Below, piece after piece: positions 1 through 6,502 of a DNA stretch of 9,571 nucleotides; the stretch's first letter is position 1; the number at the start of each line of letters is the position of its first letter. The notes under the pieces were generated by a model that saw only the letters and a program-made list of their open reading frames with translations, did not search any database and was not told the DNA's origin. The DNA comes from a virus (Duplodnaviria > Heunggongvirae > Uroviricota > Caudoviricetes), in the IMG/VR virus record IMGVR_UViG_2703718868_000012, positions 1 to 9,571 of that record; one strand, written 5' to 3'. The position numbers were made by a program, and so were the translations under genes.

Positions 1-1890
1 TCATAGTGAATCTGTCCCGCCTGATTTGACCATACCGCGATAATCCAGAGCTGCCACACCTGCATCAATACGGACTTTCCAGGCCACGCCGTCAACGATA
101 AAACCTTCCTGCTGTTCAAGGTAAGGCTCGTCATTGCCATCAAGATAAGCCACCTCGATTGTGTCCGTTCCCTGTGCGGAAAGCATGTACCATTGTTTTT
201 CGCTGATATCATCAAGGCGGGGATCGACGATGATATCAAGTAGCTTGTGATACGGGTTAAAGATCCCGCTGTTTTTATCAGCCCCGAAAGGTGCGGTTGA
301 GTTAATCATCTGCAACGCGCGATCTTCCAGTGCTGCCGGAACTAAAAGGAATTTAGGCGCAATATTCAGCACTTCGCCATTTTTGTCCTTCTGTGTGCGC
401 ATCAGGTGACGTGCTGCACTAAGTCCCGGTGTTGTCAGTCCTGCTTCAATCAGGTTGCTGTGTTTTTTGTCAAACAGCGCTATTCCGTCAGAAAGTTTTA
501 CGTTGCCTGTAAGCACCAGATTAACCAGATTTCCCACCGTTCTTGATGCTGCACGGCCCATAGCCATTGGCACCGTTGATAACTGATCAAGGTCATCATT
601 GATTATCGCCTGGCGGGTAATACTGAAAATATTCCCGTAAGTAGCCAGCGCGATGGGTTCACCGCGATCGCTGGTGGTGATGTATTTATATTCTGCCCCT
701 TCCGGCACTTTGTTTAACGTTGAGAAGCCATTCATACCAACGCGGCGGGCTTCCCGGAAGTTTGAAAGGGAACCTTTTTTCGTCCACTGGCGGAATGTTT
801 CGCCGCTGTGCTCCCAGCCTGCAAGCACTGATTTTTCAGCGCCACCAGCAAGAATATCGGTAAAATCGCTGCTGCTGTGGGTGAATGCCGCGTTTACTAT
901 CTGCGAGCGTGTGCCGTAGCTGCCCGTGCTTATACCACGATGGGTTAATGATGCCTGTGCCATATCGAAAAGGCTCATCATGGCGTAAGGATTACCGCGT
1001 TCGGCCCGTTCGTGACCAAGACGCGCATTAAGCCCCTGGCGCATTGCATCGCCGGTTATGTTGCCGTTATCCGTGTACGCGTAGTAAAGATTTGCGGGGG
1101 TGGTTTTGTTTGTTGGCGTTGATTCTTTACCCATAGCGAGTAAAAGGCGTTCGCGTGCATTCTCAACGCTACATTCTGAATCAGCAAGACAACTTATAGC
1201 CAGGTCGTTATATCTTCCGTTGAACGTGCCAAACAATTCACGTATCCCGTTGAGTCGTTCCTGTTCTCCGCTGCCAGTTTTCTGGCTGATCATGTTTTTA
1301 ATATTTTCCGGCATATTTGAAAAATCTCCGATTCGTTTTGATTCAATTCGGGCCATTGCTGTAATCGCGGGTATAACCTCATCTGCGAAACCGTTAGCCT
1401 TACACTCATTGCCATCCATCCAGGTTTCCGCCTCCATCATGGCGGTGATTTCCTGTTTACTCCTGCCCGTTCTTCCGGCGTAGGTTTCTGCCATCGTGTC
1501 GCCCAGCTTGTCCATCAGGTCAGCAAAGCGGCGAACGTCGCCCGACACTCCGGCAGTAACACCACGGGGGGCATGTATCATCATCATCGCGTTTTCAGGC
1601 ATAACGATGTGATCGCCACACATGGCAATAAACGAGGCCATAGAAGCCGCCATGCCCTCAATGTGTACAATTTTCTTTGCCGGATGATTTTTCAGGGCGT
1701 TATAGATAGCCAGCCCTTCAAAGATGTCGCCACCAGGTGAATGGATGCGAAGATGGATTTCAGACGCATTACCACACGCGTTGATCTCGTCAGTAAGTGC
1801 CGATGCTTTTACACCGTACCCGCCGATCTCGTCATAAATGCGCACATAGACAACATCTGCCATAGCCTTAATGGAAAACCATGTTTTCAT
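1..1890 (-). CDS. Prohead serine protease (ClpP-like) - scaffold-like linker - HK97-fold major capsid protein, single 629-aa polypeptide
   Basis: ATG at 1890, TGA at 3-1. N-terminal ~170 aa carry ClpP-like motifs GMAASMASF (compare E. coli ClpP GQAASMGAF around the catalytic Ser) and MMMIHAPRG (ClpP MIHQP, catalytic His). Middle ~100 aa are charged and helical. C-terminal ~330 aa look like an HK97-family major capsid protein (...FNPYHKLLDIIVDPRLDD...). Confidence 0.85.
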   Translation of the reverse strand: MKTWFSIKAMADVVYVRIYDEIGGYGVKASALTDEINACGNASEIHLRIHSPGGDIFEGLAIYNALKNHPAKKIVHIEGMAASMASFIAMCGDHIVMPENAMMMIHAPRGVTAGVSGDVRRFADLMDKLGDTMAETYAGRTGRSKQEITAMMEAETWMDGNECKANGFADEVIPAITAMARIESKRIGDFSNMPENIKNMISQKTGSGEQERLNGIRELFGTFNGRYNDLAISCLADSECSVENARERLLLAMGKESTPTNKTTPANLYYAYTDNGNITGDAMRQGLNARLGHERAERGNPYAMMSLFDMAQASLTHRGISTGSYGTRSQIVNAAFTHSSSDFTDILAGGAEKSVLAGWEHSGETFRQWTKKGSLSNFREARRVGMNGFSTLNKVPEGAEYKYITTSDRGEPIALATYGNIFSITRQAIINDDLDQLSTVPMAMGRAASRTVGNLVNLVLTGNVKLSDGIALFDKKHSNLIEAGLTTPGLSAARHLMRTQKDKNGEVLNIAPKFLLVPAALEDRALQMINSTAPFGADKNSGIFNPYHKLLDIIVDPRLDDISEKQWYMLSAQGTDTIEVAYLDGNDEPYLEQQEGFIVDGVAWKVRIDAGVAALDYRGMVKSGGTDSL

Positions 1891-2081
1891 AGCCAGGCCC
1901 CTAACGTTGCCCTGTACCAGTATTCAACCGCGCTGCGTGTGATTTGTCCTTTCGTGGGTACTGGCATACCCGGGTGATTATCTTTGATGAACTGCTGATA
2001 GCGTTCGATCTTCTCCATAGTTCCGGCGTCTATGTGTACCGTGGCACTTTTATCCGGCTTTCTGGTGTTGTTCTCTGGCAT
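1887..2081 (-). CDS. Hypothetical 64-aa protein, first gene of the capsid operon
   Basis: Strong SD AAGGAGGTGG (plus 2087-2096) ~5 nt before the ATG at 2081. Stop overlaps the capsid ATG as ATGA (1887-1890). The track ORF begins 11 codons further upstream without an RBS. No recognisable motif. Confidence 0.5.
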   Translation of the reverse strand: MPENNTRKPDKSATVHIDAGTMEKIERYQQFIKDNHPGMPVPTKGQITRSAVEYWYRATLGAWL

Positions 2082-2157
2082 AAATCCACCTCCTTTTTGG
2101 TTAACGGGCATCATTATTGATCGATAAAAGTAATAGATAAATCATTTTCTACCTGAA

Positions 2158-2191
2158 AATCAGATTATGATTTTTCTGATTATTCTCACAA
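2158..2191 (-). promoter_or_regulatory. Candidate sigma70-type promoter for the capsid operon with overlapping 7-bp inverted repeat
   Basis: On the minus strand: -35 TTGTGA (plus 2186-2191), 16-nt spacer, -10 CATAAT (plus 2164-2169), about 80 nt upstream of the ATG at 2081. Inverted repeat AATCAGA (2158-2164) / TCTGATT (2175-2181) overlaps the -10. Confidence 0.3.
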
Positions 2192-2276
2192 AGGCAAAGT
2201 TATTGACGCATTTTTGCCATTGAAGCAGTATTAAGACTCGTCATCCTGGCGATAAAAACTCCTTTGTCGTGTAAAA

Positions 2277-2311
2277 GCGCCTCCGGTAACAGCAATCGGG
2301 GGCGCTTTTTT
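2277..2311 (+). terminator. Rho-independent terminator-like hairpin plus T-tract
   Basis: Stem GCGCCTCC (2277-2284) pairs with GGGGGCGC (2298-2305) with one G-U pair; 13-nt loop; followed by TTTTTT (2306-2311). The reverse complement has a weaker U-tract, so it may act partly in both directions. Confidence 0.45.
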
Positions 2312-2508
2312 GCGCCTGTTTTTTGTAAATGTTTTCGGGAACGTTCCGGTGATGAACAAAAAACAACCTGATTCGATACTAAAAATTTTTATTTCTCAAC
2401 ATATCAATAGCTTATAGTGGTGGTGATGGTGCCATAAAAATCAAAAAATGCGCCTTTTTCCGCGCCCCTCCGCCCCGTGTTCAGGCCCACCCCGCCAGGA
2501 GGACCCGT

Positions 2509-2532
2509 AAAAAAGCCGGATTGCTCCGGCTT
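2509..2532 (-). terminator. Rho-independent terminator downstream of the ssb-like gene
   Basis: Hairpin AAGCCGG (2513-2519) / CCGGCTT (2526-2532), loop ATTGCT. On the minus strand it is followed by a U-tract (plus-strand A6 at 2509-2514). Lies ~15 nt past the stop at 2547-2549. Confidence 0.6.
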
Positions 2533-3223: not shown

Positions 3224-3271
3224 TTTTATTTTTACCCCCTCGTTTAAAAAGTTTTGAGTTGTGCCTCCCCT

Positions 3272-3498
3272 TGTCTACCTTATCTACCTTACTGGCCACC
3301 ATGCCAGTAATGGCGCGGCTTTCAGTGGGGTAGAGTGCTTTTATCCACTATCTACCCCGTATCTACCTCCCTGTCTGATTCAGGTAAAATCAGGTAGAGA
3401 GGGTAGATAGTAGGTAGACAGTAAAAAAAGGCTGTCTACCCAAGTTAATGTACTGAATTAAATGTATTTTTCTTTACTCAGGTAGACAGGGTAGACAG
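3272..3498. repeat. Iteron array, putative replication origin
   Basis: Eleven copies of the core GGTAGA / TCTACC. Plus-orientation TCTACC at 3274, 3283, 3351, 3362, 3435; reverse GGTAGA at 3329, 3393, 3402, 3413, 3481, 3490. Includes tandem GGTAGACAG x2 (3481-3498) and a 9-bp inverted pair GGTAGACAG (3413-3421) / CTGTCTACC (3432-3440). AT-rich stretch 3441-3480. Sits immediately 3' of the primase gene. Confidence 0.7.
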
Positions 3499-6238: not shown

Positions 6239-6428
6239 AGGTTTCCCCCTGGCGAATACGGGCGGCGAATACCGCAATACAACCGGACGGGCAACGGCTA
6301 CGCGCTTCGCGTTCCGTCCAGGCGGTTACGTGGATGATTTGAGATTCTCCGGCACTCAGTGCCAGAAAACGCCACACAAAGGCCGTTTGTGTGTGTGCTA
6401 GTCGTGGGGTATGATTTACGGCAACCAT
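6228..6428 (-). CDS. Hypothetical 66-aa protein, first ORF of the small-ORF/primase operon
   Basis: ATG at 6428 with SD GAGAGGT ~6 nt upstream; ends 11 nt inside the next ORF in another frame. No motif recognised. Confidence 0.4.
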   Translation of the reverse strand: MVAVNHTPRLAHTQTAFVWRFLALSAGESQIIHVTAWTEREARSRCPSGCIAVFAARIRQGETYAQ

Positions 6429-6502
6429 AAATTTACCTCTCTATAGTGTTTGTGGTTAGACGCCCTGCATGTGTTCCAGCACTGTGGGGCGTTGTTTTTT
6501 GG

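Follow-up and report, generated by a model that had tools for sequence, protein, structure and literature searches.

A conserved promoter-like block upstream of the capsid operon in a PICI-type phage satellite of Escherichia coli

The closest described systems to the satellite analyzed here are the Gram-negative PICIs of the EcCICFT073 type (PMC6092414, PMC6739421) together with their helper-embedded relatives (PMC10111431). Our element shares with these islands a gene order that runs from int and an alpA-like helix-turn-helix gene through a primase and an iteron origin to a packaging/late zone, with cos located downstream of the replication genes and with a captured capsid gene. It also resembles them in being an island of ~10 kb that, in its closest relative, occupies a tRNA site. 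Capsid genes are captured more often than any other late gene by Gram-negative PICIs, with one present in 21 of 29 reference PICIs (PMC10111431). Regulation and function of these capsid genes are not described in the cited PICI literature, where the single element subjected to a knockout tolerated it, and neither a small ORF nor a promoter belonging to the capsid gene is described in the Gram-negative PICI papers cited here. A key difference from EcCICFT073 concerns packaging, as that element has a different cosB and needs Rpp (PMC6739421) while the cosQ, cosN and cosB-equivalent of the element described here are all about 92% identical to those of helper-type phages, and no Rpp-like gene was recognized in this DNA.

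Several other systems share parts of this arrangement. For example, cf-PICIs such as EcCIEDL933 (bioRxiv 10.1101/2022.09.08.507074) have the same int/alpA/replication backbone, and a capsid gene and a protease gene head their morphogenesis module. However, cf-PICIs are about 15 kb and also hold genes for a portal, a head-tail connector, HNH, terS and terL, whereas our element has a smaller set that falls outside this definition and carries a helper's cos site rather than its own terminase. Among Gram-positive PICIs, SaPI operon I and SaPIbov5 ccm (as cited in PMC6092414 and 10.1101/2022.09.08.507074) likewise offer a separately controlled morphogenesis/packaging operon and a capsid-protein homologue alongside a helper-type cos site. 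SaPI operon I is under LexA, whereas our element gives no sign of LexA-type control or of homology in sequence, and its proteins are unrelated to those of the SaPIs. Finally, phage lambda exhibits the same order of cosQ, cosN, cosB and first head gene in the same orientation, with an identical cosQ (GGGTCCT) and a distance from cosQ to the cosN-like site that differs by one base. In lambda, a dedicated promoter is lacking for the head genes, which are instead transcribed by Q-modified RNA polymerase that reads across cos. In our element the place of terS is taken by about 150 bp with a hairpin, beyond which come a promoter-like block and then the small gene, for which phage records gave no match.

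The window, by which we mean the whole stretch of 9,571 nucleotides that was analyzed, is a ~10-kb PICI-type phage satellite of E. coli with its main genes on the minus strand. Its layout, given in the order of transcription, is as follows:

9571-8330, minus strand: tyrosine integrase
7833-7627, minus strand: AlpA/HTH_17-like regulator
next in order, minus strand: several small ORFs, one of them Icd-like, and a DUF4222 protein
5266-3512, minus strand: D5_N/DUF5906 primase
about 3269-3498: iteron field (ori)
between the iteron field and SSB in the gene order, minus strand: 85-aa ORF
2969-2547, minus strand: SSB, followed by a 465-bp gap before the 64-aa ORF
1887-2081, minus strand: 64-aa ORF, first gene of the capsid operon, with a phrog_4934 match and no Pfam hit
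1-1890, minus strand: 629-aa fusion of a ClpP-like prohead protease and a major capsid protein (Pfam CLP_protease and Phage_capsid_4)

Gene content and order class this element as a Gram-negative PICI with a captured capsid gene, an assignment that draws on Pfam and PHROG matches, the iterons and a 96%-identical island in E. coli 2012EL-2448. The features on which it depends are an int gene, an alpA-type regulator, a pri-rep gene with an adjacent ori, unidirectional genes, a size of ~10-15 kb and a specific att site, together with the lack of lysis and tail genes. The island in E. coli 2012EL-2448 is flanked by tRNA-Pro and yejO and reaches its end one to two small genes past the capsid fusion; close relatives have just 1-2 small ORFs in this position. 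The window itself ends at the stop codon of the capsid fusion gene.

The region between ssb and the capsid operon contains two hairpins and a cos site:

2507-2532, minus strand: intrinsic terminator of the replication/ssb transcript, with stem AAGCCGGA/TCCGGCTT, loop GCAA and then a T-run
2346-2513, minus strand: helper-type, lambda-type cos site
2506-2500, minus strand: cosQ-like GGGTCCT
2475-2464, minus strand: cosN-like site with a predicted 12-nt cohesive end GGGCGGAGGGGC, its cleavage positions placed by homology only
2463-2346, minus strand: cosB-equivalent, which follows the phage sequence up to the ribosome-binding site of the phage's terS
2273-2317, plus strand: another GC-rich hairpin, also with T-runs, which makes a strong terminator when read on the plus strand and a weaker one on the minus strand

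An initial annotation of this DNA had the ssb transcript ending at a terminator at 2509-2532, and our analysis bears this out. The stem at 2532-2513 comprises 8 bp with a 6-bp GC-rich core, has a folding energy of -22.6 kcal/mol (z = -5.05) and is followed by a U-run on the transcribed strand, which is the structure of a Rho-independent terminator. The same hairpin bounds the module in relatives that have perC instead of ssb upstream. A consensus scan did not list this terminator, and we suspect that extension of the stem into the T-run is the reason. The second hairpin at 2273-2317 folds on the plus strand with -27.8 kcal/mol (z = -4.65) and on the minus strand with -18.6 kcal/mol (z = -2.45), where just UUUU follows the stem. 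Satellites of the cos-carrying group are nearly invariant across this hairpin. The plus strand at 2238-2316 is a candidate for a small RNA.

For the cos stretch (2513-2346), identity amounts to about 92% with phages 1720a-02 and CP-1639 and to 72-88% with mEp460 and the Stx (Stx2) and VT1-Sakai phages. The parts of cos were placed by alignment to the joined ends of lambda and to phage 1720a-02, in which the matching stretch lies directly upstream of a Nu1-like gene (terS) that precedes terL. All three parts are present in the lambda order. We considered the ends of the mEp460 record as markers of cos cleavage and rejected them, as these records appear to start arbitrarily near terS. The initial annotation had described this 350-bp gap as a terminator followed by a promoter and overlooked the full cos site within it. 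The protease/capsid fusion is 52% identical over its full length to the protease/scaffold/capsid proteins of the cos-sharing phages. As the phages that share the cos site also have the closest homologues of the fusion, they are likely to be the helpers.

Comparison of about 60 distinct relatives from seven genera (satellites of E. coli, Kluyvera, Trabulsiella, Pectobacterium, Moellerella, Rahnella and Yersinia) revealed that the conserved element upstream of the 64-aa ORF is a 55-bp block at 2167-2113. Its parts and the downstream translation signal are listed here with mean identities to the window, which were computed over 29 representatives chosen so that pairwise identity stays below 85%:

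2144-2167, minus strand: block of A/T tracts (TAATCTGATTTT ... GAAAAT) that immediately precedes the conserved -35, with mean identity 0.72 in the TAATCTGATTTT block (2167-2156) and 0.59 in the A-tract (2149-2144)
2136-2141, minus strand: -35-like TTTATC, which is TTTACT or TTTACG in other groups
2119-2122, minus strand: GATC (Dam site), which closes the 17-bp spacer on its 3' side and adjoins the -10, mean identity 0.73
2113-2118, minus strand: -10-like AATAAT, which is AATGAT or TATGAT in other groups, mean identity 0.69
2086-2093, minus strand: Shine-Dalgarno GGAGGTGG of the 64-aa ORF, with the ATG at 2081

Mean identity is 0.68-0.73 across the spacer, GATC and -10 but falls to 0.43 in the leader and to 0.22 further upstream, and it is 0.45 at third codon positions of the 64-aa ORF. 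The hexamers and spacer at 2141-2113 are thus maintained above the background expected of synonymous sites. When upstream regions were ranked by simple sigma-70 scoring, TTTA(Y)(N)-17-(A/T)AT(N)AT was the top sigma-70-like site in 57 of 60 distinct regions, with a spacer of 17 bp in all conserved sites. The hexamers vary by group, with TTTATC-17-AATAAT in the group of the window, TTTACT-17-AATGAT in a second group and TTTACG-17-TATGAT in a third, and at least 53 of the 60 have a GATC that precedes the -10 by 4-5 nt. The site is nevertheless a weak one, with 8 of 12 consensus positions and a poor -35. Matches of such quality are common by chance so the case for a promoter at 2141-2113 rests entirely on conservation.

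What lies upstream of the block is also informative. Of 63 distinct relatives, 26 have a terminator hairpin whose end lies 33-48 nt before the conserved -35, and these hairpins are unrelated in sequence to one another. Directly upstream of the block, the cos-carrying E. coli group lacks a hairpin. Searching for the block by pattern further recovered a divergent sister branch in which it is again preceded by a terminator. The small ORF of this branch starts with GTG and is about 35% identical, and the cos site lies downstream of the capsid gene, accompanied by a 63-aa ORF resembling the N-terminus of TerS. The block therefore travels with the unit of small ORF and capsid gene wherever cos is located.

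Based on these comparisons, we favor the reading, at a probability of roughly 0.6, that the promoter maintained by selection is the weak-consensus sigma-70-type site at 2141-2113, which lies 50 bp downstream of a TTGTGA/CATAAT pair that the initial annotation had put forward as the capsid promoter. That the capsid operon probably has its own promoter, and that the capsid genes form a transcription unit separate from the replication/ssb operon, is supported by the hairpins between the two units, by the terminator-then-block arrangement among relatives and by the conserved site. The earlier proposal of separately controlled capsid expression is thus upheld by comparison, with the promoter in a different place.

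According to this model, 2082-2200 would constitute the 5' control region of a morphogenesis operon composed of the 64-aa ORF and the protease/capsid fusion. The operon would be insulated from the replication/ssb operon by the terminator at 2532-2507, the cos site at 2513-2346 and the second hairpin at 2317-2273, and would be driven by the -35 TTTATC (2141-2136) and the -10 AATAAT (2118-2113) with their 17-bp spacer ending in GATC. The T- and A-tracts at 2167-2144, which loosely resemble an UP element or an activator site, probably function as one or the other in aiding the weak -35. Transcription would start near 2106, giving a leader of about 25 nt that is predicted to be unstructured and that leads into a strong Shine-Dalgarno. 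After terminating at the end of the 64-aa ORF, ribosomes would start anew on the capsid ATG that overlaps it. Expression may rise late, either through increased copy number after satellite replication, through the conserved GATC or through an activator.

The translation signals described in the initial annotation are as claimed. The very strong Shine-Dalgarno GGAGGTGG is located at 2093-2086 ahead of the ATG at 2081, and relatives have a purine run resembling a Shine-Dalgarno that varies in sequence. The claimed coupling of a 64-aa first gene to the capsid likewise holds, as the stop codon of the 64-aa ORF overlaps the ATG of the capsid fusion in an ATGA at 1890-1887 and the same coupling is present in every relative inspected. 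An alternative 75-aa reading would use one of two in-frame ATGs (2114-2109) that lie at or just downstream of the conserved -10. These ATGs are upstream of the predicted transcription start, which agrees with the 64-aa start that PGAP calls in the 96%-identical island.

The small protein has a conserved core, VHIDAxTM..Y...HP.MPVPTKGQI.R..V.YW., which across the family is reduced to VH(I/L)DAxT, a tyrosine, HP, P.P, QI(V/T)R and a tryptophan. An exhaustive HMMER scan recovered 7 representatives, all unnamed, in 1.84 billion proteins, while back-translated searches identified about 85 loci in Enterobacterales genomes and IMG/VR contigs. In every locus inspected the small ORF lies directly upstream of the protease/capsid fusion. 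A tblastn search with the 64-aa protein gave no match in 50,697 phage records. There was also no Pfam hit at E <= 10 and no PDB sequence hit, and NCBI-style names and PHROG gave no functional assignment beyond phrog_4934. The C-terminal codons overlap the ribosome-binding region of the capsid gene, which may explain part of the conservation of an LGAW motif, and this conservation is missing from the divergent branch.

The structure prediction suggested in the initial annotation did not reveal a function. Two AlphaFold2 runs returned low-confidence models (pLDDT 60-65) with a disordered and usually basic N-terminus and two helices at 19-35 and 49-63, and Foldseek found no match to these models in the PDB. 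The suggestion that the protein is a small terminase-like factor is not supported, as there was no terminase hit in the PDB, Pfam or PHROG and the same resources revealed no resemblance either to the winged-helix domain at the N-terminus of TerS or to Rpp proteins of solved structure. Regarding the suggested role as a late activator, no activator or DNA-binding family was detected with Pfam, PDB, hhalign or Foldseek. We also considered a ribbon-helix-helix fold, in which VHID would be a strand-like motif and QI.RS.V a helix, and keep it as no more than a speculation since hhalign against a small RHH alignment gave a probability of 0.6%, Pfam and PDB had no hit, AlphaFold2 returned just two helices and Foldseek returned nothing. 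Because its gene invariably opens the operon and is invariably coupled to the capsid gene, and because phage records gave no match to it, we infer from its genomic setting that it may be a partner or regulator of the capsid function of the satellite.

The initial annotation had instead placed the promoter further upstream, overlapped by an operator-like inverted repeat. All features that it named were found at, or no more than one base from, the positions it gave:

2186-2191, minus strand: -35 TTGTGA, which is not conserved and owes its G to a private SNP at 2189
2164-2169, minus strand: -10 CATAAT, 16 nt from the -35, with just TAAT conserved as part of the upstream A/T block
2158-2181, minus strand: 7-bp inverted repeat AATCAGA (2181-2175) / TCTGATT (2164-2158), with a 10-nt spacer, bracketing the -10

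Could this pair be the capsid promoter, with the repeat as an operator for a repressor or activator that is possibly the 64-aa protein itself? Both hexamers and the repeat do exist, and by our scoring the upstream site is slightly better than the conserved downstream one (9/12 consensus positions; 8.5 versus 8). Most, but not all, members of the closest E. coli group also retain CATAAT or TATAAT together with both repeat arms. However, neither feature exceeds chance. Sites as good as TTGTGA-16-CATAAT are rarer in the window than in shuffled sequence (6 versus 11.5 +/- 4.1), and among dinucleotide-shuffled versions of this stretch (30% GC), 14% contain a perfect inverted repeat of 7 bp whose arms are 3-12 nt apart (P = 0.14). 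Conservation also argues against the pair. At base 2189 the window differs from all other distinct cos-carrying group sequences in IMG/VR. The 66-mer around this base has an exact match in 0 of 35 complete E. coli genomes carrying it, the best matches are one base off, and the single genome checked differs at 2189. Close relatives have TTCTGA or CTCTGA in place of TTGTGA and thereby match 3 and 2 of 6 positions. Over the 29 representatives mean identity to the window is 0.31 at TTGTGA and 0.55 at CATAAT, with the key second-position A of the latter kept in about 10%, so the hexamers at 2191-2164 are not maintained among relatives. The repeat has one arm mutated without compensation in four relatives (L018, L027, L043 and L030), and the dyad is thus neither conserved nor compensated as would be expected of an operator. 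In two relatives whose small protein is 94% identical (L052 and L054) the TTGTGA/repeat segment is absent with a terminator hairpin in its place, and every distant group either lacks the segment or has a terminator instead of it, with the left repeat arm missing. Given these observations, as well as the lack of a detectable DNA-binding fold in the 64-aa protein, we regard this upstream pair as an improbable capsid promoter and its repeat as an equally improbable operator. Owing to its private G at 2189, the window may nevertheless possess an additional promoter here, upstream of the conserved site and similar to it in predicted strength.

The conserved block could instead be a protein-binding site or an mRNA leader element, and two further explanations develop these options. 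It is doubtful, although conceivable, that there is no dedicated promoter at all, with the capsid operon transcribed by terminator-resistant read-through, either from an AlpA-activated satellite operon or, in helper-embedded copies, by Q-modified late transcription of the helper, and with the block acting as a leader or processing element. The main satellite genes are all co-oriented, read-through has been proposed for helper-embedded satellites (PMC10111431), and one relative (L008) is embedded in a prophage late gene in the same orientation, where helper read-through is possible. In addition, one protein that bears the name AlpA, from Pseudomonas, acts as a processive antiterminator (PMC7969949). 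The AlpA-like protein of the window, however, has no sequence match to the structures of that antiterminator, its only match being to a chain labelled "AlpA family", with a weak E value of 0.06, and the island of the closest relative is located at the chromosomal tRNA-Pro site and not in a prophage. Transcripts would also have to cross at least two hairpins between ssb and the capsid operon (-22.6 and -18.6 kcal/mol on the minus strand) to reach a block that has exact promoter geometry. The repeated occurrence of terminators immediately before the block in many relatives is more easily explained by insulation followed by re-initiation, which argues against read-through as the main route. Less probable again is that the block is mainly a binding array for a regulator, be it the 64-aa protein, a helper protein or Dam/SeqA acting via GATC, with a weak promoter that is on only after satellite replication or helper induction. 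The poor -35 combined with conserved sequence from about -60 to -38, the conserved GATC beside the -10, the recurrence of TGATT/CTGAT-like motifs across all groups and the first position of the small protein would all suit such an array. Against this, no dyad or repeat retains its register in all three groups, the small protein belongs to no DNA-binding family or fold detectable with Pfam, PDB sequence, hhalign or Foldseek, and an UP element would account for the A/T tracts just as well. We thus retain the weak-consensus site at 2141-2113 as the preferred promoter.

If this promoter is the one in use, its weakness allows a comparison with satellite P4. The late promoters of P4, Psid and PLL, are activated by P2 Ogr or P4 Delta. 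By analogy, the capsid operon may represent another satellite morphogenesis operon behind a weak promoter that probably needs extra input. No P4-type TGT-N12-ACA activator site was seen by eye at about -55 of either candidate promoter, and the 64-aa protein differs from P4-type activators in having no zinc-finger cysteine pattern. Likewise, no motif shared with the alpA upstream region was seen by eye, and a search of Rfam at E <= 1 gave no match in 2082-2560. A candidate LexA box in leaders of the Rahnella/Yersinia group was rejected, as its spacing by eye is CTG-N9-CAG rather than N10. We put forward as a speculative and rather unlikely extension that the 55-bp block and the small protein together form a late switch of capsid-encoding Gram-negative PICIs. 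The weak promoter would in this case answer satellite replication, by hemimethylation or copy number, or an activator, and the 64-aa protein would autoregulate or, together with the protease/capsid fusion, redirect capsid assembly of the helper.

As a satellite the element belongs to a known kind, and its control region is of the ordinary promoter/leader type found in bacteria. What is not described in the cited PICI literature is the conserved promoter block and the coupled family of small proteins, as well as the complete helper cos including cosB that this lineage carries, unlike EcCICFT073 (PMC6739421). The corrected position of the promoter matters for annotation since it favors the 64-aa start over the 75-aa reading. 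The predicted range of helpers consists of lambdoid phages of the 1720a-02/Stx type that have protease-capsid fusion genes, and the small protein is a candidate partner or regulator of the capsid operon. The conserved, insulated promoter-like block, the coupled small protein family and the helper-like cos make the question of how captured capsid genes are regulated and what they do in these satellites directly testable.

The initial annotation had proposed TTGTGA (2191-2186, minus strand) as the -35 hexamer of the capsid operon. The G of this hexamer is due to a private one-base difference at window position 2189 (C on the + strand), with another base present there in all other distinct IMG/VR sequences of the window's cos-carrying group. 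Among the 35 complete E. coli genomes that carry the 66-mer containing this position, none matches it exactly, and in the one of these genomes that was checked the difference lies at base 2189. The private base may stem from a mutation that created a promoter, or it may be an error of sequencing.

The 64-aa ORF that opens the capsid operon can also be read as 75 aa from two in-frame ATGs (2109-2114), located at and just 3' of the conserved sigma-70-like -10 and upstream of the predicted transcription start. The PHROG 4934 profile is 75 positions long. We regard the 75-aa annotation as a probable over-extension.

Divergent from the capsid operon, the + strand at 2203-2317 contains sequence features of a candidate small RNA:

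2203-2208 and 2226-2231, + strand: hexamers TTGACG and CAGTAT, 17 nt apart
2273-2315, + strand: strong downstream terminator (-27.8 kcal/mol, z = -4.65)

In the predicted 85-nt fold, a hairpin at the 5' end is followed by an unpaired AAAAACUCCUUUGUC segment with an anti-SD motif in it, and the terminator comes last; no match to this candidate was found in Rfam. TTGACG also forms the center of an inverted repeat, GGCAAA-N14-TTTGCC (2189-2222). In one related locus (L004) both arms are altered to AGCAAA/TTTGCT with symmetry retained, while in two others (L018 and L036) a single arm is altered.

Elsewhere in the window, an iteron field between the primase gene and an 85-aa ORF (3269-3498) contains GGTAGACAG-type 9-10-mers in both orientations and is the probable replication origin. 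Additionally, a weak SymR-like Rfam match (6423-6496, + strand; E = 0.17) adjoins an Icd-like gene and several hairpins; its score of 25.9 bits falls far short of the gathering score. P4-like immunity RNAs are reported from some PICIs (PMC10111431). The SymR-like match is probably due to chance.

The window also contains a complete lambda-type cos site (2346-2513, minus strand):

2506-2500, minus strand: cosQ, GGGTCCT
2475-2464, minus strand: predicted cos overhang, GGGCGGAGGGGC
within 2346-2513, minus strand: cosB-equivalent

Phages 1720a-02 and CP-1639 are ~92% identical to this cos site and also encode the closest homologue of the satellite protease/capsid fusion (52% aa). Because the same phages share both features, they are the likely helpers of the satellite.

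IMG/VR loci L109, L112, L113, L119 and others represent a branch in which the small ORF has diverged: it (SVHLDAQTVMRLKQY...) has a GTG start, is ~35% identical and is preceded by a terminator and the same promoter block. Downstream of the capsid fusion, these loci contain a cos-like sequence and a 63-aa ORF that resembles the N-terminus of helper TerS and is possibly Rpp-like. Finally, a related satellite (L008, 1-13834; GCA_000691205.1, JDYJ01000003.1) is inserted within a prophage ClpP-protease/capsid gene, flanked by the prophage portal gene and decoration/tail genes, the arrangement that PMC10111431 describes for helper-embedded PICIs.
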